Shown here in pieces: positions 1-34,696 of a stretch of DNA of 64,000 bases (the stretch's first letter is position 1; the number at the start of each line of letters is the position of its first letter). The stretch lies in the IMG/VR virus record IMGVR_UViG_3300028591_000001, positions 115,547 through 179,546 of that record; one strand, given 5' to 3'. A program made the position numbers and the translations under genes. Under the pieces are notes generated by a model. That model did no database searches, was not told the DNA's origin, and saw only the letters and a program-made list of their open reading frames with translations. This DNA comes from a virus (taxonomy: Duplodnaviria; Heunggongvirae; Uroviricota; Caudoviricetes).

Positions 1-3000
1 CTTATCCATTTTCTAATATATCAACTAAAGAGATTTCTTCCAAAAGAAATTCTAAGTCTAATTGAATTCCACATTCTAATTTATCTATTATTCCCAAATA
101 CTCACATATTATTTTTTCTTTAAGTTCATCAATATTGTTAGTAATAGGGAATAATTCCTAAAGCTTTATCCCATAAGAACCTAAATTAATATTTTTTATA
201 GGAAATTCAAATGGTTCCTAAATTGGGTTACAACCACATCTATTCATTTGCAACCACATCCACTAGATTTATATTTTTTGTTGCAATCATTCTATAAATT
301 GTTACATAGTCCATTACATCCTGTAATTCTTTCCAGAAGTCTTTCTGCTTCCTCATATTGGTCAATTTCTATCATATATTTTATGACATTTAATGCGGAC
401 CATAATAAATCTCTTTTATAAATTAATTCTTTATCTATTATAGATTTATTACAATTTATAGATGCAGCCTAATCAAATATCTAATAGCAAACATTAATAT
501 AACATTTTCGTAGTCTGCAAGTTTGAAAATAGTAATCATAAGTAATTTCCAAATTAGAAACATTTGGATTCATTTCCAAAAGAGTAGCAAGATCTACTTC
601 ATTATAAAAATGATAAAATTTTCCATTTTTATAATAATATTCTTGATTTTCGTCTTTTGAAAGTTTTAATGTTACTAAAGTATAAAATCCATCCATTCCT
701 AAACCAAAAGAAGGAGTTTCTTTTTCATTAGTTCTAATAAAGACATTACTTGTTACTCCAGTGGTTTGATTTAATTGTAATACATATATATAGGCATACT
801 CATTATTATAGTCTTCCTATATAATTGTATTACAATTTTTATCATAAGTTATTTTATTATTGCAGTTCATACGTTTTTAACTTCATCATTATAAGGGTTT
901 CCATCATATAACTACATAAACTCAATTTCAGTACGTTTAGAATCATTTTCAGCTTGAGATTCTTTAAATGTTCTGTCTGTCTTATTCTTATAATCATCAA
1001 GCTAGAATTGCATTTGATTCTTTTCTCTTTCTATCTGAAGTTTAGCTTCATTAAGAGATTCAATTTTGCTTTGAGCTTGTTGAAGTTGTTGTTGAGCTTG
1101 TTGTAGATTATTCTACAATTCTTCAACCTACTATGTAAGTTGCTGTATCTAATTATTTTCTTCTTTCTATTTCTTAATAGATTTTTTAACCATCGCTTTC
1201 ATTTCAGTTAAACTTTTAGCAGTCATAATATCCATAAGAATATCAGCAGAAACAATTCCTCCTTTTATAAATTCAGGAACAACTGCTCTTATTTGTTCCA
1301 TTTCCTTCAGTATTTCTGAAGAAGTAATTATATGTATATCGAAATCAGTAACTGTAAAGTATTTAGGAAGAGCAGTAAATATTTTCTATAATTTATTTCC
1401 TAATATTAATGTTCCTGTTAATCCATCTTTGTAAACTATTTTAGCACAATTTAAAGAATCCAATAAGATTTCTCTTGTTATTAAATCCATTTGATAATGC
1501 CATTGCTTGGTTACTATAAATGAATTATTAATTCCAGTTTGAACATTAGTTACTGCATCTCTCTATTGTATTCCATTTAATCTTTCTCTAAATACTCCAG
1601 TAATTGAAGATGTTGTCTATTCTACAGAGTCAATAGCTAATTGAATAGCTTGGACAGCCTATACTTTAATAGTATCATCAAATCCATTAAATATAGTAGT
1701 TAATGGTGCTTGTCCAGTATTTACTTGACCTTCTTGAGAAGTATCAATTAATGCTAATCCTTGTTTTTTATAGGCTTTCCATTTCATTAATCTTTCAGAT
1801 AAATCTTCTCCAAGAATTGCAGGAAGAGTTGGAAGGTTTACAAAATCTCCAACAGAACCGGATTGAGCTATTAAATTATCTCTATAGAAGTGCAAAAGGT
1901 CATAACGATCTTGAAGAACCATACATTTTTGAACCATAGAAAATGGTTCTCCTCCTCTATTATTAAACCATACCCCATTAACACTAAGAGTAGCTTTATT
2001 AGGAGCATCTTTAGTTCTTATTAAATCTTTATCTAATCCTTTTAAAACATATATTTCTGATCCAATTCTTACTGTAGAATATCTCTATTCAATAAAATTT
2101 TTATCAGTTTCTATCCATTCAACTTCATATACAGGAATTAAATCCTTATTATACCAATGTTGTTCTGGATATCCTGGAGTAACTTCTTCCCCAGCTCTTA
2201 TTCCATCTGTTGCAGGAGTTCCATCCTAATTATAACTTCTTATAAAATAAGAACCAGTAGTTTCTAAAGCGTCTGTCCACATTTCTTCAATTTTGGCAAG
2301 ATCGTTTTTAGATAAATCTTTACCATATTTACTAAGAATCTAATTTCTAGTTAAATATGTTCTAACTACAACTCTGTATGATTCATTAATATATGGAGAG
2401 TCATAGTTTAAGTCTGGAAACACATTAAGTGGATTTAAACAATCAATGTGTATATTTTTACCAGAAGAAGAAGGAAGAACTCTATAAAAAGTGAATCCAG
2501 AAACTAATAAATCTATAAATAACTACTTTAATTTAGTTACCAGATCAACATTTCTAGACTAAATGATATATTCAATAACATTCTGTCCAGCTATTTCATA
2601 TTCAGAAATAAAGTTTTCATTAATATCTTCTACTAATTTGTCTAACTATTCTTTTATATTTAGATCCTACATATCTTTGCTTCCAAGTATTCGTAAGAGA
2701 TTATTTTTGAGATTTGTTTGTAGGAGTTTGGTACATTCGGAAGCTATCTAAAGTTGTTTTTCTCTAAATATGTTATTAATAGTCGCAGTATCTTTACAAG
2801 AAACCTTTGGTAAAATTGGAACATCTAAATATTCTCCTACTAATGCATCAATATGTTTCCTGATTAAAGGAATAAACTCAACCGCTGTTGGCTACCCAAT
2901 ACCAAAGTTTTCTTCTAAGTATTTAAACTATTCCTTATCTCGTTTACAATTATAATAATTATAAGCTTTCTTTATAGCTGTTTTTTCCTAAACAAGTTCG

Positions 3001-3010
3001 GCAATAGCTA
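1..3010 (-). other. Late-gene block on the minus strand. Standard-code ORFs (e.g. 481-696, 1659-1937) are fragments of longer reading frames interrupted by in-frame TAG. Products unresolved.
   Basis: Adjacent same-frame ORFs separated only by TAG (rc CTA at 1659-1661 and 481-483). No TAA or TGA between fragments. Confidence 0.4.
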
Positions 3011-3012
3011 AA

Positions 3013-3309
3013 TCAGTTTTGCTAACAAGTTCTTCTTTCTTCATCTTCTGGATAAATTTTAACTCCTCTAAAGAATTTTACTCTATGTAATTGTCTAGAG
3101 ACGAGTTCTTGTTCAACAAATTTTAAAAAATCTTCTGCATTTAAATCTGCAGACATTTGTATTACGGGCTTATCTAAATTATCAAAGTCTAATTCAACTT
3201 TAAAACCTGTCCCGCCCTTCCCTAATTTAGTCACTCTAACATGTCCAGTATATTTACATTTGTATTTACACTCAATCATATTAGTAATGGCTTCTTCCAT
3301 TTCATTCAT
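3013..3309 (-). CDS. Small late protein, about 99 aa, with one recoded TAG
   Basis: ORF 3022-3309 reads through TAG at 3022-3024 to TGA at 3013-3015. ATGA overlap with the upstream gene. Confidence 0.4.
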
Positions 3310-5585
3310 CTATATCTAGGATTACTTGTTATATTCATTCCTGGAATATATCCAGTATTTATTTCTCCTTTAACTTCAAATTTATTTTGAGTAGGAATTA
3401 TTCCGTATCTCTTAACTCCTTTTTCATCAAAATAATAACCAATATCTCTAAGTCCTTGTCCAACAGGCTTATATTCTCTTGGAATAACATCATTTAATTC
3501 TTCATCTCCAACTTCAGCCATTTGACAGGCAGCTACCATATCAAATTTTCCTTTATTTTCGTCAGTATAAAGATTTAACTATTCTAAAAATTCTATAAAC
3601 CAAATATTATGACAGTAATCTTCTACATAGGAAGCAACTAAGTCAGTACCATGTTCAATCATAGCTGTAGTAGCTGTGGTACCATACTAGTTATTATTTC
3701 TTCTTCTTTCATCTCCTCCATAACAAGCTCTAGGACGTCTCATAAAGAAATGTGCGAATTTATTATCGCGAGCATAAGTTAAAACAGATAAACGAGTAGC
3801 TTCTATATTTGCTTTTGCCTGATAATACCATAACATTGCCATTGTTTGCTTGTAAGCATCTCTAATATCATCTGGTCTATCAAGATAATAAGCTACATAA
3901 GTTGGCTCCTTCATTCCATGTACTCTTCTTTTTATCATTGTACAGAATTTAGAAGGATCTCTGGTTTGAACAGAGGTTTCTGCCTAACCAATATCAATAC
4001 CGTCTATTCCAGCAACATATAGATTTTGTATTATGGGACTACCATCTTCCCATAAAGGATGCTCTAATATTCTAACTGGACCATTTGGATTAGGTTTAAA
4101 TCTAACTCCAGTGATATTCTCCCTTTTTCTTTCAGGTCCAGAATAAATAAATTCCATATATCCTCTCTAAATAGGAGGAGCCTATTTTTTAATTCTAATA
4201 GAAATTATTTGTTCAGCTATTTTAAGTTTATTAAATTTATTTACACCTTCAGCTGCAAAAGCTTCTTCTGCTGTAAAACATTGCTCCGCCTTATGCTCAA
4301 GAAGTGTCTGTGGATCAGTAATTTCTGCTCTTCTCTATTCATAATATTCTCTTTGTTTTTTCATCAAGTATTCGCCTCGACTTCCAACAAACTTAGAGTT
4401 ATTCATTGATATATAAGCAGGAATAAAGTAAGCAGTTTCTACCCAATCCCCATCTTCTGTATAATTATGTTTAAAAGGCAGAACCTAGAACATTTTAGGA
4501 TTATAATATACTTTTCTAAGTCCTTCAAGGTTTGGACCCGCGTCACCTCCCGTTCCTACTGCTGCAATAATTCCAATTTTATTACCACCAACAGTAACAA
4601 GTTCTTCAGCTTTTATGAATGATCTCTCTAAGATAGGATTAGAACCAGACTCTTCAAGAAATAAGAAACCTACACGGTCACCACGCATCTTTCTATCTTT
4701 GTCCACAACTATGCCTTCTATTTGAGACATAAAACCTGTTTCAATCTTTTGTCCATTTACTACTTTATAATGAGAAGCTCTTTTCTTAGTAGCAGTATTA
4801 ATTACCTATCTAAGTTTAAGCATTCCTCCCTAGGTATTATCATCAGTAAATGTTATTCCAGCATTTATCTTATCAAGAGTTTTCTTAACATAATTATCAT
4901 CAAATGCTGTGAGCAAACATATACTATTTTTAAAACAATTAAAAAAGTTATCAAATATAGAAGCATGTATTTCAGAAAATCCACAACCACGGTTTTTCAT
5001 TACTGTCATATTCTTCCTTAACTTTCTACATAATTCAAAATAGTGGAAGAATTCGTATTGATAAACAAAGAAACGAGGAAATATAATAGAACGACTATCA
5101 CCTGCAACATCTTGTTCTGTATTAGGTAATTGATAGTAGTTAAGAAAATAATAGTTAAATCCAGTAATAGTATAACCATTAACTGTCATTCCTTCCTTGC
5201 ATCTTCTATATTCTTCATTCCAGAAATCTCTATAAAGTTTAGAACCAGGGTAGTAAGAACAATATTGTTCAGTTTTTAAAAATGTTTCACGAGCTTCAGT
5301 AAACCAAGAAGGATCAAAGTCTAATCCTTCTGTTTCTGTTATTGGTTTATATCCAGTTAATTCATAAGAAAGTCTTTTATCAAAGTAAGGTACTGGATCG
5401 TCTATTTTAACATCCCATTCACCTTCTCGATGTTCTATAGTAGTCTCTGGTTTAATTTCTTCTATTTGCTGTTGAAGTTCTTCTTGTTTCTATTTAACCT
5501 CTTCAACTATAGATTTGACTTCCTCAGGAATTTCTGGTATAGGATTCTTACGTGGACGGCCTCTTTTCTTTTTAACCTCTTCCAT
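3306..5585 (-). CDS. Large late protein, about 760 aa, with at least 8 recoded TAG codons. Possibly the terminase large subunit: C-terminal DxD...E...D pattern, N-terminal KRGRPRK.
   Basis: ORFs 4830-5189, 4485-4730, 3687-3938 and 3306-3539 share one frame and are joined only by TAG. ATG at 5583-5585 (MEEVKKKRGRPRK). Motifs VAGIDGIDIG, SYVEDY and GKFDMVAA suggest an RNase H-like nuclease, but no Walker A was recognised. Confidence 0.4.
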
Positions 5586-5589
5586 TAAT

Positions 5590-7800: not shown

Positions 7801-7806
7801 CCATCA

Positions 7807-8397: not shown

Positions 8398-8398
8398 A

Positions 8399-8620
8399 TT
8401 ACCATTTATTCATTAAACATTTTTCAGATTCAATGCTTGCTTTACTTTTTAATATACAACCGCATTGATCACATATATGTGAACTCATATACTTTATATT
8501 ATGTTCACAAGTTTTACATATATCTAATCTTCTTTTTTGTTCATCTGAAGTATAACCAGTTAAATTTCTCCAGTTACCTACTATTATATTTCGTAATTTA
8601 AGAAAGAGATTCTTTAACAT
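8399..8620 (-). CDS. Small zinc-ribbon protein (CxxC...CxxC)
   Basis: 73-aa ORF carrying CKTCEH...CDQCGC. Confidence 0.4.
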   Translation of the reverse strand: MLKNLFLKLRNIIVGNWRNLTGYTSDEQKRRLDICKTCEHNIKYMSSHICDQCGCILKSKASIESEKCLMNKW

Positions 8621-8897
8621 CTTTGTAGTATCTTAGATATTCTTTATACTATCTTTCATCTAGATAGTAAATAACTCCATCTATTTCTACTTTTTTTAGC
8701 ATTACCATTTTCCAGCAACACAATGATTATTTAAGTTTCTCATCTTTATGAGAATGTGACAACCACAACCTCTGATAAATCCGGGTTTTGCAAAAGAGGA
8801 AACTTCATTAGTATCTGGATTTAACCAAAGTTTTGGATTACATAATCCCATAGCAGGACTAAAAATAGGACAATTCTTACAAATGTCTCTACGTTCA

Positions 8898-9809
8898 TCA
8901 ATATTCTATTCGTGCATATTTAGCTTTTTGTTTTTCTAATTTGTTTTGTTTAGCATAATGTTTTAACATCTTTTCTACATCCTCTTTTAAATAAGAACAA
9001 TGATATAAAGTATTTTTTCCAGAATGATCATAATGATTTAAAATTAAATCTTTTATAATGAAATCAGAATTTAATTTTTGAAGCATCCACGCATAAGTTG
9101 ATAATTGTAATTGATAGTGATTAAAATTACATTCATCTAAATGTCCTAAAGGATATTTCATTTTATCGGTACAACGATTTGCATTATTGTAAAATCCTTT
9201 TAAATCTATTTTAGCATTAGTTTTATGGTCTATGATATAAATATCATTTCCATTTTTTACTATAAGGTCTATTTGTCCTGCCAAGTGTAAATCAATTTTA
9301 GGATTATCATAATATATAAGGTACTCAGGATATATTCCATAGTCTAAGTTAAGATCAGTATAATCTTTTTTACATTCAAATTTTCCTCCAATACCAAACT
9401 TCTTTAAAGTAATATTAGAACCAGCATTATAAAAAGAATTTTCTAACTGTGCATGAATTTTAGTTCCTCTTTCACAAGCAATTCTATTTGTTTCTGCCCA
9501 TTCATCAAGAATATCTTGTTGAACTTTATTTAGATTTTCTTGAGATATATTATATACCTCTAAAAAATCTTTTGGTATTTTATGGTTTTTCCAAATACCT
9601 CCTTTTTCTTTTTTCCAGTCTTCTGGAGACATTATTCTTTCTAAAGCTTTATAAGCACTTACAAATTCCTTATCAAATTCTTTTCCATACCTTTCTATTA
9701 AAGTAGTTACAGAGATATATTTGATAGTAGGATCATTTAAATTTCCGTAGTAATGGTCAGCTTCTCTAAATCCTACTGAACCATTAATTTTATCATATCC
9801 CATTTTCAT
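8898..9809 (-). CDS. PD-(D/E)XK family nuclease (RecB or Cas4-like fold)
   Basis: 303-aa ORF with GQIDLIV...IYIIDHKT (D...D-x-K) and several Cys residues. No TAG. Confidence 0.55.
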   Translation of the reverse strand: MKMGYDKINGSVGFREADHYYGNLNDPTIKYISVTTLIERYGKEFDKEFVSAYKALERIMSPEDWKKEKGGIWKNHKIPKDFLEVYNISQENLNKVQQDILDEWAETNRIACERGTKIHAQLENSFYNAGSNITLKKFGIGGKFECKKDYTDLNLDYGIYPEYLIYYDNPKIDLHLAGQIDLIVKNGNDIYIIDHKTNAKIDLKGFYNNANRCTDKMKYPLGHLDECNFNHYQLQLSTYAWMLQKLNSDFIIKDLILNHYDHSGKNTLYHCSYLKEDVEKMLKHYAKQNKLEKQKAKYARIEY

Positions 9810-9832
9810 ATAACATATATTTTTTATTTAAT

Positions 9833-10441
9833 TTAAGAATTATCTTTTATATACTATAATATACCTTCTACATGAAGTCTTACAATTGCATGAAATCCTT
9901 CATCACTAAGTAAATAATCTACATCTTTTTTATTATCCTAAAAAAAGTTTTCTGTTAATACTGCAGGACAATTCGTATTTTTTAATACATATAAATGAGC
10001 TTCTTTATCTGGATCTCCATCTGACAAATCAATTCTCATTTTTTTATCCTTTAGATTAAGTTTTGCTGCATTATATAAACAGGTTGCAAGTTTATCAGCT
10101 TTTGTTTTTCCTACTGATGTATAAACTTCCCAACCTGTTGCATCATGCCACTTTCCATCAGAAGCGGCGGCATTTACATGTATTGAAACATATATACAAT
10201 TCTTATATTGTTTCACTAATTCATTAACAATTTTACATCTTAATTGTAATTCTTTAGATTGAGATACTTTTAAATCATCATCTTCTATATCAATAAATAC
10301 TTGGTATCCCATATCTTTAAGAATATCTCTTACAGCCTTACACACTTCTCTAGAATATTTATATTCTTTAAATCTTCCATCAGGAGAACCTTTCCCTAAG
10401 ATGCTTTTCTAATGAGCTGTGCCAAGAAAAATTGTAATCAT
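9833..10441 (-). CDS. N-acetylmuramoyl-L-alanine amidase (Amidase_3) endolysin with 3 recoded TAG codons
   Basis: MITIFLGTAH[TAG]KSILGKGSPDG...SIHVNAA...GWEVYT... ATG at 10439-10441. Reads through TAG at 10409-10411, 9938-9940 and 9854-9856 to TAA at 9833-9835. Confidence 0.75.
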
Positions 10442-11184
10442 TTGCATATTTTATCGTAGTCAAGAAGTAATGCTAATTTTTGAATATGAGGAAGAATATC
10501 TCCAGCATATTTATAATCATAACTTTTAGGTTCTTTATAAAAAAGAATAATTAAACCTATTTGAGAAGCATGTCCTTCGATAGTAAAAAAAGAAACAGAT
10601 TTTGCATTACTAGCTTTTACTAATCTATAAAGTTTTGGGAGAGAGTATCCCATGTCTTCTACATCCTCAAATTTAACAAAACTTTGACTGTGTATTTTAG
10701 ATAATTCATCTGCATAGTATATATAATCTAACTTATTCCACTACTATTGAAGAGTAGGAGTATCTAATGATCTTGGAGCTTCTGTGAGACAAGATAAATA
10801 CAAATATTTATAACCTTGTAAACTTTGAGTATTATTATGATAATTCAAAAGTAATACATCAAAAGCATCCCTATCTACTTCTGCTATCAGCTGGACCTAC
10901 TGATTTATTTCAATAGCAGTTTCCATAGAATATTGTTCAGCCTTTTTATTACTTACAATTTCCTACTCAAACCGTTCTGTCATTATTCTTCCAGTTTCTC
11001 CAGTTATCTGAGAATACAAAACCCATCCAAACAAAAGAACAATAATTAAAGTCTTCGTTTCTGGACGAATTCTATCAAGTACTCTCCACAAATACTTAAT
11101 CCAATTTAAATTCATTTTTTTGTTAATTATAAAATAAAAATATTTGTATTTACTCAAAGTTATTAGTATATTTAGTAATGTCAA
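10438..11184 (-). CDS. Lysis-associated membrane protein (holin or spanin candidate), TAG-recoded
   Basis: N-terminal TM segment LIIVLLFGWVLYSQI. ORFs 10963-11184 and 10438-10653 are in one frame joined by TAGs. Lies immediately upstream of the amidase. Confidence 0.4.
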
Positions 11185-11286
11185 AATAATTAATATTTAA
11201 AAATATAAAAATTGAATTTTTGAATAAGATATTTACTTTTAATTTAACACTTTATATAAAATATGAATAAAAAATAGATTAGAAAG

Positions 11287-12261
11287 ATGTAGACTGCTAG
11301 TGGAGGTCCACTTCAATTAACTCCAGAAGAACAAAAGTATTTAGAATGGAGTAAAATGACTCCAAAATAGCAATAGACTTATAGAATAAATAGAGCTAAA
11401 GCTTATTTTAATGATGGACAATTATGGAATGCAGCAAAATCTTATTTTGGAGGATTTGATCCTAGAAATCCACATTTAATTACTGGAGAGGCTCCTAGTC
11501 CAGGAATGAGAAATCCTAAGTAGATAATACAAGGAGTTTAGAAAGCTAAATCTATAGCTTAGAGAGCTGCTAAAATTTCTGATAAAGTGTTTGATAGACA
11601 ATATTGGAGGGCAATAAGTAGTGGAAATCCTAAGAGAGTTTAGGCTGTAAGAAGTTTACATTTTAGTGCTAAAGCTCCTGAAACAAAAGTTGTTGATATT
11701 AAAGGAAGACCTCAATTGGTAATTCATAAAACACCTAATTATTTTATAAAATTTGATAATAATAGAAGTTATGGAAAAGTAAATTGGTTTGCAACAAAAA
11801 ATGCTTTTGAAGGAGAAGAAGGAGTATTTGCAACTGGTGCTGGACGTAATCCGAGAGAAATGAAATTATATGTTAATATAAAAAATCCCCACATTCCAAC
11901 TTTAGATGAAGGGGTAGAACCTGCATATATAAATGAAGGAGAAGATGGAATTTTAGCAATTGTAGACAATAACTATACTAATTATTTTCCTTCTACGTCA
12001 AAAGCAGGAAAAGGATTTAGAATATCCGGGGGAGTAAATAATCCTTATGCGTTAAAATCCTATAATTCTATAACTTATGATAATAATGGAAATATTATTC
12101 CTATTTCTTAGAGAGATAATTTTTTAATTAATGATATAAGATATAAACAAGGAGGTAAAATGAATATATTAGAATTTTTAAAGAATGGAAGTAGAATCCA
12201 TATTAAAGAAAAGAACAAGGGTAAATATTTTAAATCAATTAATAAATATGTAAATGTATGA
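11287..12261 (+). CDS. Late protein of about 324 aa with 6 recoded TAG codons (the first is codon 2). Ends at TGA.
   Basis: Frame traced by hand from ATG 11287 through TAG at 11290, 11368, 11374, 11521, 11539, 11560, 11641 and 12109 to TGA at 12259. Confidence 0.5.
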
Positions 12262-13010
12262 TGGAAGAAAAATTAACAAAGGAAGAGTTACAAGAATTAG
12301 GAAGTTCTTTTAATTCAAAATTAGGAATGGATATGTTTAAGAAAATAGATGGAGTTGTTTATAAATTATGTACTAAATGTCTTAAATATAAACCAATGAA
12401 TGAAGAATATTTTCCACATAGAAGTAATGTAAAATGTGGATTTGATTCTAGATGTAAGGAATGTTATAAAGAAAAAGAAAAAACTAGAGTTAGAGTCAAA
12501 CCATTTAACGAAGAAGGAGAATTATATTGTTTAAAATGTAAGTAGTATAAACCTTTATCTGAATTTTATCCAAATTCTAGTAATACTAAAAATAGAAATT
12601 ATTATTCTAATTATTGTAAATCTTGTGAATCTGAAAGAAGTAAAATAAAAAGAGAAAATTACCATTCTGATGATCCTATTTTATTTTTTAGAGATTTAGC
12701 AACTGCTTGTAGAGGTAGGGCTTATCGTAGTAATAAATTTAAATGTACAATTACTAAAGAAGATTTGTTAGATTTATATGAAAAACAAAATCATAAATGT
12801 GCATTATCTGGAATTGAAATGACTACAATAAAAGAAAAAGGAAGATTACCAAATAATGCTTCTGTTGATAGAATAAATCCTGGAAAAGATTATTCTATTG
12901 ATAATATAAGATTAGTATGCAATCATATAAATATGATGCGATCAGATTTATCAGATGAAGAACTTTTAAAATATTGTAAAGCTATTGTAGATTATGTTAA
13001 TAGAATTTAA
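12258..13010 (+). CDS. HNH homing endonuclease with one recoded TAG
   Basis: ORFs 12258-12545 and 12765-13010 are in one frame joined by TAG at 12544. Motif ASVDRINPGKDYSIDNIRLVCNHINMM (HNH_3-like) plus Cys-rich zinc fingers. Confidence 0.7.
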
Positions 13011-13011
13011 A

Positions 13012-13845
13012 AAAGGAAATAAAATATATATTAAACCTAAAAATCGCGGCAAATTTACAAAATACTGCCACGGTAAAGTAACAGATGAATGTATATAGAA
13101 AGGAAAAAATAGTTCTAATCCTGCTATTAGAAAGAGGGCTACGTTTGCAGCTAATGCTAGAAAGTGGAAACATGAATCAGGAGGATTATTAAAGTTTGAA
13201 GAAGGAGGTAAAAATGGAGCTCCTTCTACTAAGTTTTTATCTAAATAGTGGTTTAAAAAAGCTGGAAATACTATAAACAATATTGGAAATAATATAGGAG
13301 ATTTCCTAAAAACAGATACGGGAAAAGGTATAATGGATATTGGATAGAATATTCTTAGTGGATACACTAATTATAAAAAAGCTTCTAATTTATTAGATTC
13401 TCAAGTAGAACAAAGTAAAGCTTCCTTAGAATAGGCCTATTAGGATACAATATAGTAGGCTATATAGAATAGGGCTATTCAACAATAGTTGGTAAAGGAA
13501 TAGTGGAAACAAGCTTATTAGAATGGAGAAACTTTAGATAATTATAGTGATATTGTTGCTCAACATATAGGATGGAATTAGTATAGTTCCGCTTTATAGA
13601 ATGCCGAACAATAGAAAAGACAGCAAGAAGCATTAATGGATTAGCAAGCTAAATAGGCTAAAAGTAATGCTCTAGGAAATTTATTTGGAAGTGTTGTATA
13701 GTCAGGACTTGGAGTTTTAGGTAATGTATTAGGAAAAGGGGGAATATCAAGTACTCCTACTACAAGTACCTCTACTACTGCAACGAATAATACTTAGTTC
13801 AGTTCTCCTTTAAATGATTCAACAAAATTTTGGAGTATAAAATAA
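13012..13845 (+). CDS. TAG-rich reading frame (more than 15 TAG) with no in-frame ATG. Its N-terminus (KIYIKPKNRGKFTKY) duplicates the C-terminus of 11287-12261, so it may be the downstream half of a gene split by the HNH insertion.
   Basis: Frame 1 is open from 13012 to TAA at 13843-13845. Similarity IHIKEKNKGKYFKSI vs IYIKPKNRGKFTKYC. Confidence 0.35.
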
Positions 13846-13880
13846 ACCCCGGTAGGAAATTAATCCTATCGGGGTTTTAC
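13844..13880 (+). terminator. Rho-independent terminator
   Basis: AACCCCGGTAGGA aattaa TCCTATCGGGGTT followed by TTTAC. 13-bp stem with a G-U pair. Confidence 0.6.
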
Positions 13881-14044
13881 TTAAGAATATGAAAAAGAAT
13901 TATCTATCAATGTCAATTGATAGTCTATTAAGTTCATCTTTCCAATTGAGGTAGTAACCATTATCTAACATATTATGGTCTATAGATAATTGTTCTATTG
14001 CCTTAATCTCGTCTATATTTGCTTTATATAAATCTCTAAAAATT

Positions 14045-14389
14045 TCAGTTCTCATAATAAAGTGTCATTAAATACTCTTCTGTTATTTCCTTTACTCCAG
14101 TTTTAGTGGTGGGATTCCATATATGATTTTTAAAGAGTTCTCTCATTGTAGGACGAGATTCATTAACTTTAATATAGCATACTCTTCTAATATCATCTAT
14201 GTTAGAACGAACTATTACTTTTGTTACATCTTTCATACAATCTTCTAACTCATTGCTAGAAGATTTTTCTTTTTTAATAGGATTATCTATAATTTCTATA
14301 TCATCTATAGATAATTTCATTCTCTTTAATTTCTTCTCCAAATTTGGAGTAGTAATTATTGTTCCTTTATATTTAAATGTCACTTCCAT
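14045..14389 (-). CDS. Hypothetical protein of about 115 aa
   Basis: ORF 14045-14464 trimmed to the internal Met, because its first 25 codons are the translation of the suppressor tRNA gene. Confidence 0.45.
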   Translation of the reverse strand: MEVTFKYKGTIITTPNLEKKLKRMKLSIDDIEIIDNPIKKEKSSSNELEDCMKDVTKVIVRSNIDDIRRVCYIKVNESRPTMRELFKNHIWNPTTKTGVKEITEEYLMTLYYEN

Positions 14390-14391
14390 AG

Positions 14392-14463
14392 TTGTCCCAC
14401 TAGGATTCGAACCCAGGCTAAAGGATTTAGAGTCCCCTGTACTGACCGTTATACTATAGGACA
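14392..14463 (-). tRNA. Suppressor tRNA with anticodon CUA (reads UAG), probably Gln-derived
   Basis: Cloverleaf: acceptor UGUCCUA/UGGGACA (U1-A72), D GUAU-AACGGUCA-GUAC, anticodon stem GGGGA/UCCUU, loop CUCUAAA (U33, C34-U35-A36, A37), T-arm CUGGG-UUCGAAU-CCUAG, discriminator A. Resembles the phage tRNA-Gln(UUG) at 34623. Confidence 0.8.
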
Positions 14464-14473
14464 ATCTGCTGTT

Positions 14474-14839
14474 TTAAACCAGCAGTTTTTTGAATGCTTT
14501 AATCTTACGATTAGCAATTTCTTTGGTTTTAGCCTTTACTCTTTCAATTACTTTCTTATAGTCTTTAGAGTTATAAAGAGCTTGAATATCATTTAAACCC
14601 TCTCTTTCAGCAAGTTCTTCAAGAACTTCGCTAAACAAAGAATCATCTACTTGTTTTAACCAGTTCTCAAATTCTTTTTTATCTTCATTTTCTAAAAGTT
14701 GTACTTTAATAGTTAAAGTATTTCCTTCTTTCGTAGAATCTATTACAAAATGAGTATCATCGTCTTGATATTCTTGATGTAATTCGTCGAGTCCCATTAG
14801 CTCTGCTACGAGAGCTTTTAATAATTCTTCTTGTTTCAT
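14474..14839 (-). CDS. Hypothetical acidic protein, 121 aa
   Basis: ORF track. Standard code. Confidence 0.5.
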   Translation of the reverse strand: MKQEELLKALVAELMGLDELHQEYQDDDTHFVIDSTKEGNTLTIKVQLLENEDKKEFENWLKQVDDSLFSEVLEELAEREGLNDIQALYNSKDYKKVIERVKAKTKEIANRKIKAFKKLLV

Positions 14840-14892
14840 AACAATACTAATATATCTGCTATTTTATATAGACAAATTTAAAAAATGTTAAA

Positions 14893-15627
14893 TCAAGATT
14901 CTTCTTCTAAAAATTCTTCTAAGCTATTGATATTGAATTTCTTTTTAAGAACTTTTTCTATTAACTTAATATCATTAGTATTATTTTCTACTTTATTCTC
15001 AGTATTTCTTAACCTTTCTTCATGATTTCCTAAAATAAATACAATAGCCTGTTCTATTTTACTCAAATGGAATATTTTTTCTTTTATAGGCAATCCTGTT
15101 TCTGAATCTCTTTGTGATAAAGTATTAATGTTTAATATCTGTTTTGCTTGAAGAGCATTGTCTAATCTAGAAACAGTTGAAGGAGAAATATTTAGTCTTT
15201 TTGATAACTCTATATTATTATAGGTAATAATTCCATCTTGTGTATCTTCTTTTTTAAACATATACTGTTGGGTAGCTAATATGTAGGCTTTCTCTTTAAA
15301 AGAAAGTTTTTTGTTATCTAAAAAATCATATGAAAAAGGTTCAAATTTATCCCATTTCAAAAATCTATATAATTTACCTCTACCTTTAGGAGTTACTTCT
15401 ATATATTTAGCATTTATTAAATTTTGAATACTAGTTCTTACAGTATTTATGGATGCTCCGCTTTCCCTAGAAATAGTATCAAGAGAAGGATAACAGGTTT
15501 TTGTTTCTTTATCCATATGTCTTTTTATTGTAGCATAAATAAGAATATCCCCAGGTTTTAAGTAAATGTTTTGTTCCGTCATATCATTTGGAACCTGCAC
15601 GTGTTGTTTATTTAATTCATTTTCCAT
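14893..15627 (-). CDS. HTH DNA-binding protein (two winged-helix-like segments). Candidate replication initiator or early regulator.
   Basis: 244-aa ORF with YPSLDTISRESGASINTVRTSIQNL and LSKRLNISPSTVSRLDNAL. Lies next to the iteron array. Confidence 0.5.
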   Translation of the reverse strand: MENELNKQHVQVPNDMTEQNIYLKPGDILIYATIKRHMDKETKTCYPSLDTISRESGASINTVRTSIQNLINAKYIEVTPKGRGKLYRFLKWDKFEPFSYDFLDNKKLSFKEKAYILATQQYMFKKEDTQDGIITYNNIELSKRLNISPSTVSRLDNALQAKQILNINTLSQRDSETGLPIKEKIFHLSKIEQAIVFILGNHEERLRNTENKVENNTNDIKLIEKVLKKKFNINSLEEFLEEES

Positions 15628-15657
15628 ATAACTAATATATTATTATTAAAATTTTTT

Positions 15658-15768
15658 CAAATTGATATTATCATTTTAACATTTTTTAAAATTGCAAAAT
15701 TGATAGGATTAATTTCAAAATTGATAATTTCAATGTCAAAATTGATAGAATTAATTTCAAAATTGATA
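15658..15768. repeat. Iteron array: 5 copies of CAAAATTGATA. Four are spaced exactly 21 bp apart (15695, 15716, 15737, 15758).
   Basis: Read directly from the sequence. Copies 2 and 4 extend to near-identical 33-bp units. Confidence 0.65.
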
Positions 15769-15771
15769 GCT

Positions 15772-15812
15772 AACTATACTTAAAACTATACTTAAGATAA
15801 ACTATACTTAAG
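15772..15812. repeat. Three tandem copies of AACTATACTTAA, followed by a GGCCGTGCGGCC near-palindrome
   Basis: Read directly from the sequence. Confidence 0.55.
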
Positions 15813-16042
15813 GCCGTGCGGCCATTATTTTTAGGTTAGAGATATACTCTACTTAAAAAATTTTTTCTAAAATTTTATTTTTTTTTAAATTTTTTTGGAT
15901 TTTTTTAGCATAAAATTTTTTTCTAAAATTTTTTTGGAATTTTTTGTGGGAGAGAGGGTGCTACCAACCGCCAGTCCCCCCACCCTATTTGAGTGAAAAC
16001 TCAAAAAGATACATATTATAAACTTTTAAAAACATTTCAATT

Positions 16043-16579
16043 ATGAGTAAGTATTTTGATAAGAAGGCTTATGCCGCTATGGTCAAGAGTGAGTCTGCAC
16101 GTCGTTCAAGTGAGAGTTTCTTTTCTTCAAAAGAAGGAGATAATTACTTTGGCAATGTTACTGGTTCTCTTAAGGTTGTAGGGGTTGAGCCCGTTGCTGC
16201 CAATGGTAACATCAAGGCATTCAATGTGGTTAAGTTCGACGATGGGCATCAGATGTCTACATCTCGTTTCTTCTCTGCAAAGGGTCTCCGCTGGCCCGTT
16301 GGTGGTAATGTAGCCAAGTTGAACTATCTTTGCTCTGCTCTCGAATCGGGTACAGAGATTGAGGTTCAACCTAAGCAGGTAACATCTACCCCTATGATGC
16401 GTCGTGACGGTACATATGTGGGAGATGGTGGCTCGGTTTTACAGCCTGTCGAGAAAAAGGAAGGTAACAAGGTAGTTGGTACTGAAGCACCTGCAGGAGC
16501 CCTGATGGCTGTTACCTATTATTTTGAGGAGCAGGATTTGCCTGCTGTTCAGATGATTAACTTTATGGAAGAGGAGTAA
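16043..16579 (+). CDS. Hypothetical early protein, 178 aa. Markedly higher GC (~45%) than its surroundings. Acidic C-terminal tail FMEEE.
   Basis: ORF track. It is the first gene after the divergent intergenic region. Confidence 0.55.
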   Translation: MSKYFDKKAYAAMVKSESARRSSESFFSSKEGDNYFGNVTGSLKVVGVEPVAANGNIKAFNVVKFDDGHQMSTSRFFSAKGLRWPVGGNVAKLNYLCSALESGTEIEVQPKQVTSTPMMRRDGTYVGDGGSVLQPVEKKEGNKVVGTEAPAGALMAVTYYFEEQDLPAVQMINFMEEE

Positions 16580-16598
16580 TACTCCTCTTCTTAAATGT

Positions 16599-16781
16599 AT
16601 GTATACATTTATAGGAAGAAGAGAAAAGAACCCTAAACGTTTTAAAACGATTGAAGGGTTCTATCTCACTTTCGAAAAAGAACTTCCACTGTTTGAAGAT
16701 TTTATGTATGTGATTCTTTGTACTCGTAATGAGGAAACAAAGTTATTTACATTTGTGAGGTCTGCTTATTGGTGGGAGTAA
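16599..16781 (+). CDS. Hypothetical protein, 60 aa
   Basis: ORF track. Confidence 0.35.
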   Translation: MYTFIGRREKNPKRFKTIEGFYLTFEKELPLFEDFMYVILCTRNEETKLFTFVRSAYWWE

Positions 16782-16987
16782 AAACAAAACACCAAACAAC
16801 AAACAACAAACAACATTATTTAAACAATAATTAACGTATCTTTTTTGATTTTCACTTAGGTTGAAATTCCTTGGATGTATGTCCTAAAATCCCTAACATA
16901 TCTAGAACCTTCACGTGGGTTAGGGGTGAAAGCACTGTAGTGGTGTGAGTACATATCTAGATAAATAATAAACAAATATTAAACAAT

Positions 16988-17275
16988 ATGAAAAAAATTC
17001 AAGTTACAACAATTGAGAAGATGGCTAATGTTCAGATAATTGAACTAAATGCATCATTCATTGCTAGAGTTGTAAGACTTCAAGCACAATTGGAGCCATT
17101 AGTTAAGAACATCACTCGTACTAAACGTAAGTTCAATGACAAAACTAAAGAGTATGATGATGTCCTGGATGAGAATGGCAACAAAGTCATTGAGTATGAT
17201 CGAGTTGATGGTAAGGTTTTGGCTGAGAATGTAATGCCGTTCATCAATGAATTGTGTGGGGCTTTTGAAGAATAA
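16988..17275 (+). CDS. Hypothetical protein, 95 aa
   Basis: ORF preceded by AACAATATG. A hairpin terminator candidate follows at 17300-17340. Confidence 0.5.
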   Translation: MKKIQVTTIEKMANVQIIELNASFIARVVRLQAQLEPLVKNITRTKRKFNDKTKEYDDVLDENGNKVIEYDRVDGKVLAENVMPFINELCGAFEE

Positions 17276-17697
17276 AAGGTTAGTGAAGCCATAAAGAGAT
17301 CCAAAGTTCGTGAGAATATAGGGTCTCTTTCTCAATTTCAGGGGTTGAGTGTATAAAATTGAAAGTTGTGATAGTTGCGATTGAAAAATTATTGTGATCG
17401 AACATAACTGTTTGGGCACTGTCATCGACGCCAACCCAACTCCACAAATTCAACTCAACTCAATTTCAAAAATGGCTGCTTCATTAAAACTTAGTTTTAA
17501 TCAATTTTTTATACACAAAAAATATTGAATTTTCAAGCATTAAAAAATTTAAAAAAAATATTGGAGTTGGAATACCAATATATTTATAAAAACCCTATAA
17601 AATTCCCGTCATTCTGGAAGACGTAAAAAAGGTTTGCTGATGAGGCCAGAACGAAACGAAAAATATATTCGTACAAACAAACAAAACAATTAGCAAT

Positions 17698-18087
17698 ATG
17701 AAAAAAGAAAAATTAACACGTTTTGACATTGATATGCTTCAAGCATTGATGTCATCAGAAGTAAAACTTCTAAGAGTATTCCCTTATGAATCTCAAGCAA
17801 TTAATTTGATTGCGGATACAGAAGGTTACTCAAAGTGTGAAATCCAAGAAGATAGTCTTCTTTATAAAAGACTTCTTGACATCCGTAAGTATGCAGCTAA
17901 ATTTAACATGGATGACAATAAAATTGTTATTCAAGTTGAAGTTAATGCTGGATATACTCGCGATTATTTATTCCTTGGATTTTGGGATCATCATTATTCT
18001 ATAGGAACTGCTGTTATTCCATGTGCATATGCTCCAAAAGAGTTTCCATGTAATAATGGATGGGTAGGTATGAATGTAAAATTCTAA
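17698..18087 (+). CDS. Hypothetical protein, 129 aa
   Basis: ORF with an AGCAATATG start context. Confidence 0.5.
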   Translation: MKKEKLTRFDIDMLQALMSSEVKLLRVFPYESQAINLIADTEGYSKCEIQEDSLLYKRLLDIRKYAAKFNMDDNKIVIQVEVNAGYTRDYLFLGFWDHHYSIGTAVIPCAYAPKEFPCNNGWVGMNVKF

Positions 18088-18091
18088 GAAT

Positions 18092-18481
18092 ATGAAGTAC
18101 GCAATACAACATAAGATCTCTGGTCAAGTAATAGATTATTGTGAGACCAGAGATCAAGCTCAGTGGTTTCTCAACCAATCAAGTAAGTTCGAATTAGTAG
18201 AAATTGCTAATGCCTCTAAGGTTGAAGTAATCTACACTGAATTAGGAGGACCTAATGGTTATGGACATCAAGAACCTTCATTTACAACTTATGGAGGTCT
18301 TTTACCTTGCGTTAGAAGACTTATTTCATGGATGCAAGAAGAAGCTCGTGTTTGGGGTCCAGATCCTAGAGATATTAGAGACTATTTCAAAAATTGTCGT
18401 CTTTATATAAATGGAGAAGATAAGTTTGACTGGTGGTATAATCAATATCAAAAGTTAGATTTGAAAAGTCTTTATGTATAA
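18092..18481 (+). CDS. Hypothetical protein, 129 aa
   Basis: ORF track. Confidence 0.5.
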   Translation: MKYAIQHKISGQVIDYCETRDQAQWFLNQSSKFELVEIANASKVEVIYTELGGPNGYGHQEPSFTTYGGLLPCVRRLISWMQEEARVWGPDPRDIRDYFKNCRLYINGEDKFDWWYNQYQKLDLKSLYV

Positions 18482-18540
18482 ATAGCAAAGCTCTCATCGC
18501 TATACAAAAAGTGTGGGAGCACAAACAAACAAATAACAAT

Positions 18541-18753
18541 ATGAAACAGAAAGTATTTGAAACAAAGGAAGGAGTAGCATTGTTCTTCGATGAGGAGAAA
18601 TATGACTACTCAAGTGATAACATGCAAGCTGTTGAAGCAGCTCTTAAAGAGGATATGGCCAATTATTTGGTAGATCCTCAAGGAGCAGCAATGGCTCACA
18701 ATCTTATGGCTATTATGGTTTCCATGGATAGATACCATGAGATGGTGAGCTAA
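18541..18753 (+). CDS. Hypothetical protein, 70 aa
   Basis: Start moved to the ATG in the AACAATATG context. Confidence 0.45.
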   Translation: MKQKVFETKEGVALFFDEEKYDYSSDNMQAVEAALKEDMANYLVDPQGAAMAHNLMAIMVSMDRYHEMVS

Positions 18754-18781
18754 TAGCTTGCTAAATAAAAAGTTCAATTAT

Positions 18782-19066
18782 ATGAAACAGATTTATTTGT
18801 TAAATGCATTTTCATTACAGATGGTAGACGTACCCTGCGATGTCCATTTTGAGGAAGTTGACGAACTTCCAGATGGATTGACCTCTGCAATTGGCCATCA
18901 AGATACAGCAAATGTTCTTGGTGTTCCAGTGAACAGAATTAATGTTCATCTTTCGAAAGGAGATACTGCTTATGTAGCTCAGTTACAAGGTGGACGTCTT
19001 CCTGAGGGTTCTACAACATTACCTGAGGGTTTTTCCTTTAAGTATATTAAGGTTGTAATAAACTAA
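18782..19066 (+). CDS. Hypothetical protein, 94 aa
   Basis: Start at the ATG in the AATTATATG context. Confidence 0.45.
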   Translation: MKQIYLLNAFSLQMVDVPCDVHFEEVDELPDGLTSAIGHQDTANVLGVPVNRINVHLSKGDTAYVAQLQGGRLPEGSTTLPEGFSFKYIKVVIN

Positions 19067-19069
19067 GAG

Positions 19070-20380
19070 AAAACTTTCAAAAAAACTCAATATAAAATAT
19101 CCTAATTTGTGCTGACTGAAATATGCCCTTCGCTTATAGGATTTCCAAGATGTTGAGGACGCCAGTTTCTTAGTGTGGCAGGGAGTATCTAACCCTGTGG
19201 ATTGCATTGGATGTAAAAGCTATGATACTAAGTTTTAGGTGTAAAACACAATTAAAAAATGACTGGATAGTTTAACCGGTTTAGCCGTGACTCATTGAAT
19301 GCCAGCATTATTGCTTAATAAGTGTGAGAGCAATTCACAATCTGCAGGTTGTGACGTCGAGGTATATCCGACGATAAATAAGATAATATACTTAATCAAA
19401 GATTACCACACATCGAAGAGGATAATAAAATAGCCCGAACTATACGGATTAACTAACGTGGAAAGAAGAGCTTATCTTCTTTAAATATATAGTAAAATAG
19501 GTGACTTATCAGTTCAATAAGAAACTGTTCGCTTACCCAAAGTGTTAAAGTCAGATTATGTACAGAAAATGGGCGGAGTAAATTCCCGTATAATCAATGT
19601 TCACAATATATGCCAGTATATTGTGTTCCGTATCGTTGTATGCTGGCACATACAATTGACGTAAGTAGACTTAACTACATAACAGTCGCAATGTTAAGCT
19701 CGATACCTAATGCGTGAAGGTATAATATTTAATGACCTATTTACATCCTTGGCAAAAGGCTCTGTCGCAAAAATATTAGGCATATAACCCTCAAATATGC
19801 GTGAGAGGATTAATTTTAAATTTAACAATATGATTATTTTCAATTTTAAGTTTAATTGAGGCGTAGCCGAACTTCATTCGTTACCAACTGAATGGTAAAG
19901 TTCATATGGCTAGAAAGAGGCAGTTGGAAGTTGCACACATGGCGGACACGAAAAGTAGGATGAAAGACTAGTAAGTGTTGATGTCTGATTCCAAAATTAC
20001 TCGAAGATGATAGAGTATAAGTAGTATCATCCATTCCTACGTGACATCTTGGAATTCGTAGTGAGGGAAACAAAGAGTATAAAAGAAATCTTTAACAAGA
20101 CAAAGTTGGCAGCTTGGAATAGACAGCAAATTTTAATTTAACAATCTGAAACTAACAATTTGAAACCGTCGAAATTTCACTGATGATTACCGAGGATTAA
20201 TGCTCGGATTCTACATGGTTGTTTTAGGATAACAACGTAGTAGGGCTTAAGCGACGTAAAAAAAGAGCCGAAATTGTTAAGTTTGTTTGGTCTCCATTCA
20301 TAATTGGATGGATGGAGACATTTTTTAAACTAAACAATATGAAATAATTAAAACTTTTAACAATGAAAAAAATTAATATA
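19070..20380 (+). ncRNA. Candidate large structured non-coding RNA of about 1.3 kb (GC-richer, no ORFs, many local hairpins). Ends at a terminator.
   Basis: No ORF of 60 aa or more in the standard or TAG-recoded code, other than short spurious ones. GC visibly above the genome average. Many helices, e.g. GATGATA...TATCATC and CTACG...CGTAG. Terminator at 20289-20328. Confidence 0.35.
20289..20328 (+). terminator. Rho-independent terminator
   Basis: GGTCTCCAT tcataattggatgg ATGGAGAC followed by ATTTTTT. Confidence 0.55.
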
Positions 20381-22649: not shown

Positions 22650-22713
22650 CAAATTTAATTTTGATTTTTCATAAATTAAAATAAATTAAAAAATAAAAAT
22701 AATTTTTAATGTT

Positions 22714-24264: not shown

Positions 24265-24359
24265 AATAATTACATACCCAATTATTCTTTTTTATCTTTC
24301 CTGGTTCACTTCTTATTTTATTAAATTTGATTTCATAAAATATATTTGGTTAAAACTAC

Positions 24360-29764: not shown

Positions 29765-29995
29765 CTAATCCAAACTATAACAATATTATTGACGTTCTTG
29801 ACATATGAATTGAAAGCAAACGTAGGTGCTTTAATTGCATTGGTAAACGTTAGGATAAATCAAGACCTAATACTAAGGAAGAAATTGTTATTTCTGTACA
29901 GAGTTTGGATTAAATTGCCAGGGTAACTCAATAAATTGATTTTAGTAATTTTATTAGTTACTTACAATACTATAGTTTTCAAAAAGGTTAGAGTA

Positions 29996-34622: not shown

Positions 34623-34696
34623 TGGGGTTCGGTGTGATGGTCGCACAAGAGGTTTTGGCTCTCTTGGAATTGCTGGTTCGAATCCAGTAACCCCAA
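34623..34696 (+). tRNA. tRNA-Gln(UUG)
   Basis: Acceptor TGGGGTT/AACCCCA (U1-A72), D GTGT-GATGGTC-GCAC, anticodon stem AGAGG/TCTCT with loop TTTTGGC, T GCTGG-TTCGAAT-CCAGT. Confidence 0.7.

Follow-up and report, generated by a model that had tools for sequence, protein, structure and literature searches.

An amber-suppressor tRNA in a standard-code operon and late-type genes in which TAG appears to encode glutamine in a divergent, probably crAss-like phage

The window analysed here, a stretch of 64,000 nucleotides from the IMG/VR virus record IMGVR_UViG_3300028591_000001 (positions 115,547 to 179,546; GC content 30.7%), encodes on its minus strand a tRNA with the anticodon CUA that would read the amber codon UAG. 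This gene lies in a leftward operon without in-frame TAG codons that comprises a DnaD-like gene, an open reading frame (ORF) of 121 aa, a hairpin, the tRNA itself and an ORF of 114 aa, whereas 13 genes of the window, among them those for portal, large terminase and endolysin, are interrupted by TAG at many positions. The features at the locus are as follows:

14392..14463, minus strand: suppressor tRNA(CUA) of 72 nt with a canonical cloverleaf (ARAGORN, Rfam and covariation)
14428..14430, minus strand: anticodon CUA (tRNA positions 34-36) in the loop CUCUAAA (derived, with position 34 = 14463-33)
14466..14485, no strand assigned: hairpin CTGCTG-N8-CAGCAG, 2 nt upstream of the tRNA 5' end (dG -9.9 kcal/mol, z -4.9)
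14045..14389, minus strand: conserved and TAG-free ORF of 114 aa with its ATG at 14389, 2 nt past the tRNA; this is the true extent of an ORF mis-called as 14045..14464
14474..14839, minus strand: acidic and TAG-free ORF of 121 aa, directly upstream of hairpin and tRNA
14893..15627, minus strand: TAG-free gene for an HTH_36/DnaD-like initiator or regulator of 244 aa (Pfam PF13730, 5e-17; PHROG 186/428)

In the ARAGORN output, the tRNA spans 14391-14463 (-) and has the anticodon cta, starting at position 34; this is the anticodon named in the original prediction, which had been made from the sequence without database searches. The Rfam tRNA model RF00005 matches 14463-14392 (-) over its full length (model positions 1-71/71) at 61.0 bits (E 9.4e-11), above the gathering score of 29 and in fifth place by Rfam among the 23 tRNA matches in the window. 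According to the Rfam covariance alignment, the coordinates 14392-14463, the minus strand, the loop CUCUAAA and the pair U1-A72 had all been given exactly. The acceptor stem UGUCCUA/UGGGACA is formed by U1-A72, G2-C71, U3-A70, C4-G69, C5-G68, U6.G67 and A7-U66 and is followed by a D arm GUAU-AACGGUCA-GUAC in which G18G19 are present, an anticodon stem GGGGA/UCCUU with a loop of 7 nt (C32 U33 C34 U35 A36 A37 A38), a variable loop of 4 nt, a T arm CUGGG-UUCGAAU-CCUAG and the discriminator A73; CCA is not encoded. The assignment to the amber-suppressor type is upheld, and this is the single gene of that type among the 31 tRNAs that ARAGORN finds in the window with introns allowed (28 without). 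Minimum free energy folding of the tRNA alone did not recover the cloverleaf (z -0.9) and is uninformative, as folds that miss the cloverleaf are common for tRNAs. A low-threshold Rfam scan of 13500-16500 returned only the tRNA besides sub-threshold matches to NsiR1 and CopA, which we judged to be due to chance.

Homologous CUA tRNAs are found on five other phage contigs, of which two (L002 and L003) carry homologs of the large terminase (TerL) of the window at 74% and 55% identity and three (L004 to L006) came from a scan of IMG/VR with the anticodon-arm sequence. When the cloverleaf was scored on an alignment of the six CUA tRNAs and two phage tRNA-Gln(UUG) genes, 98.2% of cells were paired and compensatory double changes were seen at 16 of the 21 pairs, a level that none of 500 shuffles reached, and all slid controls fell to 40-54% paired. 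Together with the full-length Rfam match, this covariation substantiates the clean cloverleaf of the original prediction. The loop CUCUAAA, including A36-A37-A38, is unchanged in all six homologs, and the sole systematic departure from cloverleaf pairing is the first pair, where U1 is conserved and 1:72 is weak or open (U-A in the window, L004 and L006; U.U in L002 and L003; U.G in L005). In the relatives with 74% and 55% TerL identity, tRNA and TerL share a strand, and the tRNA precedes TerL by 8-10 kb; gene order around the tRNA is kept in L002 to L006, and the tRNA operon is free of TAG in every locus. These comparisons indicate that the suppressor tRNA is under purifying selection for both structure and anticodon.

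When TAG is taken as a sense codon, ORFs of 100 aa or more cover 72.2% of the window instead of 52.5%. The use of TAG is bimodal, with 123 in-frame TAG among the 4474 codons of 13 genes (2.75%), where it makes up 46% of all Gln codons, against none among the 7298 codons of 41 other genes, in which out-of-frame TAG stands at 2.2%; the latter set was picked for having no TAG, and the contrast is a description of the pattern and no independent test. Four of the TAG-containing genes are listed here:

867..3044, minus strand: portal, 725 aa, 22 in-frame TAG (PHROG 6547, 4.5e-44)
3306..5585, minus strand: large terminase (TerL), 759 aa, 10 in-frame TAG (PHROG 6681, 4.7e-66; tblastn to crAss-like TerL)
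9833..10447, minus strand: endolysin of the Amidase_3 type, 3 in-frame TAG (PHROG 435, 3.6e-41)
10438..11115, minus strand: protein of 225 aa that adjoins the endolysin, 4 in-frame TAG, without family match

The 225-aa protein has a hydrophobic N-terminal stretch, as judged by eye, and is presumed from its adjacency to the endolysin to be a member of the lysis cassette, while the remaining TAG-containing long ORFs, about ten neighbours, have no family match. The gene-by-gene pattern of TAG is kept in L002 to L006, down to 55% TerL identity, and code usage is gene-specific rather than strictly modular. Two TAG-free islands, a GroES-like gene (7807-8409, minus strand) and a PD-(D/E)XK exonuclease gene (8898-9827, minus strand), lie in the TAG-rich leftward block and are both kept in L002, L003 and L005, and two TAG-rich islands at 22690-24264 (+) and 47404-48741 (+), with 18 and 12 TAG, lie in the TAG-free rightward block. 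Six standard-code genes on the plus strand apparently end in TAG (38541-38789, 39160-39576, 40615-41712, 44195-44473, 44608-44868 and 44873-45289). Five of these six have a backup TAA or TGA 2-3 codons past the TAG, as compared to 10 of 43 genes ending in TAA or TGA (Fisher p = 0.008; small sample), and three share the junction TAGTTATGA, in which the TGA overlaps the ATG of the next gene. Such backup stops may limit read-through extension once the suppressor is present.

The identity of the amino acid was addressed with codon-level comparisons, because an initial tally of residues in TerL proteins from databases, mostly Q, is partly circular, a recoded table having been used for their translation. 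Compared to a relative with 92% identity in TerL, the window's 10 TAG codons in this gene correspond to CAA eight times and to GAA and TAG once each, and three conserved TerL columns hold nothing but TAG, CAA or CAG across four genomes. Over 29 gene-locus pairs, we counted 54 TAG:TAG and 227 TAG:sense pairs, and the sense partners include Q 99 times, K 23 times and E 21 times. Summed over the TAG:sense pairs, BLOSUM62 scores amount to 493 for Gln as compared to 257 for Glu, and an empirical log-likelihood with a model from the same alignments is -522 for Gln and -805 for Glu as the runner-up, a gap of about 280 nats. Q is the partner of 44% of TAG codons as compared to 63% of genuine Gln codons. 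A natural control is offered by the record MT835470.1 (positions 89736-117447), in which TerL is 45% identical, GC content is 36.5% and 92% of the sequence is covered by ORFs under code 11; its TerL has no in-frame TAG, and no tRNA was found within 27.7 kb around TerL. This more distant relative genuinely uses the standard code, showing that suppressor and recoding co-occur in the clade, and its partners at 51 TAG positions of the window include Q 17, N 6, T 5, E 4 and K 1. Because TerL, all shared genes and the standard-code relative point the same way at the level of codons, TAG is best read as Gln, and this part of the original prediction is upheld. Peptides prove the same assignment in two crAss-like phages, one of them with a genome of 191 kb (PMC9523058).

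The source of the window appears to be a divergent crAss-like phage. Its TerL and portal match the crAss-type PHROGs 6681 and 6547, and tblastn of TerL returned mostly crAss-like, Bacteroides and Flavobacterium phages at about 23-29% identity. Identity is about 27% to the TerL of named crAss-like phages and 45-48% to that of two unannotated human-faecal "Bacteriophage sp." contigs in GenBank, whereas metagenomic relatives reach up to 96%, several of them contigs of 155-180 kb. The ENA assemblies ERZ1667807, ERZ1024255 and ERZ28653742 contain relatives. A megablast of window positions 1-20000 against 50,697 phage records gave zero matches. Judging by the contig sizes of its relatives, the phage would belong to the large-genome crAss-like group described in PMC7886860 (e.g., the zeta group). 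Shine-Dalgarno-like motifs are not enriched in front of its genes (6 of 53 as compared to a background of 9%) and the upstream regions are rich in A/T, which is consistent with a Bacteroidota-type host but no proof of it.

The tRNA operon starts next to a region with features of a replication origin:

15640..16020, no strand assigned: divergent intergenic region of ~380 bp (sequence inspection; the GC skew changes sign nearby)

This region contains the iteron-like direct repeats CAAAATTGATA (five copies) and AACTATACTTAA (three copies), T-rich repeats and a GC hairpin GGCCGTGCGGCC, and it adjoins the DnaD-like initiator gene; presumably, both an origin/iteron region and early promoters are located here, with the tRNA operon leading away from them. 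The DnaD-like gene is the first of the leftward operon, carries the PHROG annotations "DnaD-like helicase loader" and "replication initiation protein" and is kept upstream of the tRNA in L004, L005 and L006. The 121-aa ORF that follows is kept in L003 and L006 and has no match in Pfam, PHROG or PDB sequences. Further along the minus strand lie the endolysin gene and the 225-aa ORF, 3.3-4.6 kb downstream of the tRNA in a layout shared with the relatives, then the TAG-free exonuclease and GroES-like genes and the TAG-rich structural and packaging genes. Three TAG-containing genes on the plus strand (11260-13845) are interposed between the operon and the endolysin/225-aa pair. A TAG-free block of replication or early type meets TAG-rich lysis, structural and packaging genes at the tRNA, in line with the original prediction's placement of the tRNA between early and late modules. 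Matches to a sigma-70-type promoter are at chance level (15 found, 13.5 expected). Sites of the Bacteroidota-type motif TTTG-N(17-23)-TAnnTTTG are genome-wide no more frequent than chance predicts, and none lies near the tRNA. Elsewhere in the window, the gene at 24354-24929 (+) matches Pfam DUF6939 (2.9e-66) with a weak, sub-threshold likeness to the DarT1-associated NADAR antitoxin and may be an anti-defence gene.

The tRNA is tightly enclosed by its neighbours. In five of the six loci (the window, L002 at about 85-110, L004, L005 and L006), a hairpin lies 2-9 nt upstream of the tRNA (dG -8 to -13 kcal/mol, z -2.7 to -5.0), with its position kept and its sequence different between loci, and in the same five loci the ATG of the downstream ORF stands 1-3 nt past the base after the discriminator. 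The stop codon of the upstream ORF sits in the hairpin loop in the window (TAA) and in L006. A U-run follows the hairpin on the tRNA strand in L002 and L004, which makes these terminator-like, whereas the T-run of the window is on the opposite (plus) strand. The exception among the six loci is L003, which has extra tRNAs and, between tRNA(CUA) and the downstream ORF, an inserted 293-aa gene. In this contig (1722-2852), a tRNA-Gly(UCC) and a tRNA-like sequence with a GUU (Asn-like) loop precede tRNA(CUA).

Because the homologous ORF starts just past the tRNA in five of the six loci, the annotated 139-aa ORF (14045..14464, minus strand, TTG start) that runs through the tRNA is an artefact, as the original prediction had suspected, and the conserved protein starts at the ATG at 14389. 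The downstream ORF shares the motif M..TFKY...LEKKLKR(M/L)K...DIEII over the loci, and its 114-aa product has 393 homologs. Of 90 homologs that we checked among the 120 listed, 32 begin with extra residues (e.g., VSTGDSKSFSLGSNPSGTT) that are nothing but a translation of the tRNA gene, with GSNP corresponding to the T loop. In some homologs (P0229 and P0230), the extension is a translated Asn(GUU)-like tRNA; given these and the arrangement in L003, the tRNA slot in front of the downstream ORF is therefore variable. The 114-aa ORF has no sequence match in Pfam, PHROG or PDB, and a fold search of the PDB with its AlphaFold2 model (pLDDT 80.7) gave no match either (best E 2.2, TM score 0.28). These searches gave no sign that either small flanking ORF is related to translation.

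The simplest reading of this junction would be co-transcription followed by excision of the tRNA; the hairpin would either stabilise the 3' end of the upstream mRNA or work as a leaky terminator, and 3' processing of the tRNA would give the downstream ORF an essentially leaderless mRNA. A bolder proposal, which we put forward tentatively and consider rather unlikely, is that the whole micro-architecture (stop codon in the hairpin, a gap of 2-9 nt, tRNA(CUA), 1-3 nt and an ATG) serves as a timing device for the code switch. The hairpin would then curb read-through from the early DnaD-like operon into the tRNA and so set the time of the code change, and the transcript would be punctuated when RNase P and a 3' endonuclease cut out the tRNA, with a hairpin remaining to protect the 3' end of the upstream mRNA. 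Translation of the downstream ORF, freed on an essentially leaderless mRNA, would be coupled to tRNA maturation. Excision of tRNAs as punctuation of a transcript is familiar from mitochondria ("tRNA punctuation").

The original prediction had derived the Gln assignment from a likeness to another tRNA gene of the phage:

34623..34696, plus strand: phage tRNA-Gln(UUG), the comparator of the original prediction (ARAGORN, Rfam)

This likeness is real in that U1-A72, G2-C71 and A73 are common to both genes, but it is not diagnostic. The same three elements occur in the tRNA-Phe of the window, U1-A72 is present in 8 of the 28 window tRNAs (ARAGORN), and with the anticodon loop masked tRNA-Thr is the closest body in the window (0.67), ahead of tRNA-Gln(UUG) in second place (0.65); in L004, tRNA-Gln(UUG) is the top match (0.65). 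In its D and T arms, the suppressor is closest to an odd 90-nt tRNA at 34834-34923 (+), a paralog that falls below the Rfam gathering score and has 18 of 19 positions of the D arm identical. ARAGORN calls it Ala(GGC) or, with introns allowed, Gln(CUG) with a 12-nt insert. Its best fold is Lys(UUU) with the arm UCUGA-CUUUUAA-UCAGA, which is part of the minimum free energy structure, has an 18-nt insertion between D and anticodon arms and is better than the Gln(CUG) fold by 5.5 kcal/mol (-21.9 as compared to -16.4 kcal/mol). The idea of a supE-like origin of the suppressor from a tRNA-Gln(CUG) paralog is therefore unsupported. With introns allowed, ARAGORN finds further insert-bearing tRNAs at 29626-29765, 33343-33457 and 33953-34549 (+), namely an Arg(ACG) with 49 nt, a Lys(UUU) with 23 nt that also scores 36 bits in Rfam, and a Leu(UAA) with 510 nt in the anticodon loop. 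That loop of Leu(UAA) is the classical position of group I introns; no Rfam intron family was found at threshold for these tRNAs. ARAGORN tRNAs under the Rfam threshold also include those at 21872, 35057, 35929, 50852, 56720 and 56991.

Taken together, we consider it very likely that the phage produces an amber-suppressor tRNA, probably charged by the host's glutaminyl-tRNA synthetase (GlnRS), which inserts Gln at UAG and thereby enables translation of lysis, packaging and other late genes, and that it is made from standard-code sequence and so comes before the genes it serves. The observations above directly support the presence and conservation of the tRNA, the bimodal use of TAG, the equivalence of TAG and Gln and the architecture of the operon. 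We infer the steps that would join them. The tRNA would be co-transcribed with the upstream genes, excised by RNase P and a 3' endonuclease and completed by CCA addition, and the mature molecule would most likely be charged with Gln by the host enzyme. Paired with UAG in the ribosomal A site, it would insert Gln, and the 13 genes of the window that are otherwise broken by 123 TAG (portal, TerL, endolysin and structural neighbours) would become translatable. The invariant A36-A37-A38 is the MiaA-modified context of tRNAs that read codons starting with U and would favour efficient decoding of UAG. Because the tRNA operon is written wholly in the standard code, unmodified host machinery could make the switch, and the client proteins would have to wait until the tRNA accumulates. 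Such a temporal role would fit the published model in which recoding delays the expression of late and lysis genes.

Several findings weigh against this reading, some of them concerning the charging of the tRNA. E. coli GlnRS recognises its substrates by U35, C34 or U34, a weak 1:72 pair, G2-C71, G3-C70, G73 and G10. Of the elements that the original prediction had singled out, U35 and G2-C71 are present in the window, next to C34 and the weak U1-A72, whereas G3-C70 and G73 are absent. U3-A70 takes the place of G3-C70, and 3:70 is never conserved as G-C among the six homologs; G2-C71 of the window is C2-G71 in three of them; A73 replaces G73 in all six; position 10 is G in three and U in three; and position 36 is A, not G, as it is in supE. 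The body of the tRNA resembles tRNA-Gln only loosely and would make no clear Gln acceptor by E. coli rules, and Lys(UUU) is the best fold of its nearest D/T-arm paralog. A73 is, however, also present in both phage tRNA-Gln(UUG) genes, and because of this the identity rules of the host GlnRS probably differ from those of E. coli. In addition, a CUA anticodon alone attracts GlnRS, as is known from the su+7 amber suppressor derived from tRNA-Trp that is charged with Gln. Beyond charging, no aminoacyl-tRNA synthetase or release factor was found adjacent to the tRNA with Pfam, PHROG and PDB searches, the promoter searches recognised none for the tRNA, and the terminator-like hairpin directly before the tRNA in several relatives suggests that it may not simply be co-expressed with the early genes. 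Finally, the window covers 64 kb of a genome that probably measures 155-180 kb.

The most direct challenge to a temporal role is a constitutive, fixed alternative code in which TAG means Gln without any function in timing and the TAG-free genes reflect expression level, gene age or horizontal origin. We regard this as unlikely, though the TAG-free islands in the TAG-rich block and the TAG-rich islands in the TAG-free block are what it would lead one to expect. It is countered by the persistence of the TAG pattern gene by gene down to 55% TerL identity, by a tRNA operon that is free of TAG in all loci, by the late-type character of all recoded genes with an assigned function (portal, TerL and endolysin) and by the convergent pattern described over phage clades (10.1101/2021.08.26.457843). 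A different purpose would be damage to the host, with read-through of host TAG stops deranging host proteins, including those of defence, and phage use of TAG being secondary, as raised as a possibility for crAss-like phages in PMC7886860. The backup stops behind the TAG-ended genes, by which the phage would guard its own genes, fit this notion but do not show it. With 123 in-frame TAG in essential phage genes, the tRNA is indispensable to the phage's own proteome, so that we find this explanation improbable as an account of its main role, but both roles can coexist.

That TAG might encode an amino acid other than Gln is very improbable. Lys would be suggested by A73, U35 and the near identity of the D and T arms to those of the 34834-34923 tRNA with its Lys(UUU) fold, and pyrrolysine by the label "tRNA-Pyl" that ARAGORN gives to the suppressor from the anticodon alone. 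The codon comparisons favour Gln over Lys and Glu by about 280 nats, K is the partner at just 1 of 51 positions in the standard-code relative MT835470, and the conserved TerL columns admit only TAG, CAA and CAG. A tRNA-Pyl has an acceptor-D linker of 1 nt, a D loop of ~5 nt without G18G19, a variable loop of 3 nt and a non-canonical T loop; the two-nucleotide linker U8-A9, the 8-nt D loop with GG and the T loop UUCGAAU of the suppressor rule out this identity. The one feature that it has in common with tRNA-Pyl is a sixth pair, A26-U44, that may be added to the anticodon stem; ARAGORN draws it and is left with a variable loop of 3 nt, whereas the Rfam alignment has a stem of five pairs and a variable loop of 4 nt. 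General Pfam and PHROG scans found no pylS or pylBCD domains in the ORFs neighbouring the tRNA, and proteomics identified Gln in related phages (PMC9523058). Still less credible is a pseudogene or chance match with TAG being read through by another route. About 60% of TAG-recoded phage genomes are indeed without a detectable suppressor tRNA (10.1101/2021.08.26.457843) and must read TAG in some other way, but a score of 61 bits over the full model, compensatory changes at 16 of 21 pairs, an anticodon loop that is invariant at 55% TerL identity, conserved synteny and a standard-code MT835470 region without the tRNA all speak for a functional gene.

For annotation, these results mean that the window has to be translated with TAG = Gln, since the genes for portal, terminase and endolysin and about ten more otherwise fall into fragments, and that extending an ORF through the tRNA is an error, both here and in about one-third of the 90 homologs checked. 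The codon test with a standard-code relative as control gives a clean and non-circular demonstration of TAG = Gln. More broadly, the locus agrees with the accepted mechanism by which some gut phages carry a suppressor tRNA and write their late genes in a code that the host cannot read. The conserved arrangement of hairpin, tRNA and start codon offers a testable handle on the expression of the code switch, the manner and timing of which are still treated as a model in the literature. Were the arrangement a timing device, the hairpin would set when the code of the cell changes.

The classical counterpart is supE of E. coli (glnV/glnX), a tRNA-Gln with its anticodon changed from CUG to CUA that inserts Gln at UAG as a weak, tolerated suppressor. 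It has in common with the phage tRNA the CUA anticodon, Gln at UAG, a weak U1-A72, G2-C71 and the GlnRS-recognised C34 and U35, whereas U3-A70, A73 and A38 of the phage tRNA stand against G3-C70, G73 and U38 of E. coli tRNA-Gln. Unlike the weak supE, the phage tRNA serves 13 genes in which TAG is among the major sense codons.

Among phages, suppressor tRNAs and recoding of late genes have been described for crAss-like phages (Yutin et al. 2021, PMC7886860), a regulatory model with an early switch and late/lysis targets has been proposed (Borges et al. 2021/22, 10.1101/2021.08.26.457843), TAG = Gln has been validated by proteomics (Peters et al. 2022, PMC9523058) and tRNA-Sup-CTA genes have been reported in other gut phages (PMC10607447). 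As in the accounts of code-15 crAss-like phages given there, a CUA tRNA is found in an AT-rich genome with TAG mainly in late, structural and lysis genes and TAG = Gln; unlike those described, the lineage of the window is without a near match among deposited phage records. The succession of hairpin, tRNA and start codon behind a DnaD-like gene is not mentioned in those passages of the literature on code-15 and recoded phages that a keyword search retrieved. In the "code-change module" described for Jade phage, a TGA suppressor tRNA, a tryptophanyl-tRNA synthetase and release factor 1 lie upstream of the lysis cassette (10.1101/2021.08.26.457843). In the locus studied here, too, a standard-code operon contains the suppressor tRNA and lies a few kb upstream of a recoded lysis cassette, both on one strand, yet the codon and amino acid are TAG and Gln instead of TGA and Trp. 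With a DnaD-like HTH protein and two small proteins as neighbours in place of a synthetase or release factor, it does not qualify as a full code-change module. The phage also resembles phAss-1 of "Phassvirus" (PMC10607447), for which TAG = Gln was deduced from TerL alignments and which has a tRNA-Sup-CTA and many tRNAs without a dedicated synthetase; "Phassvirus" is reported as a non-crAss lineage with similarity-based hints at Bacillota hosts and has two or three suppressor copies, as compared to one in the window. A Crassvirales genus with amber reassignment (2026 preprint) was set aside as a different, 101-kb lineage without suppressor tRNA. Against this background, the window is a fresh example of an already documented phenomenon, in a lineage without annotated relatives, and would not surprise a specialist.

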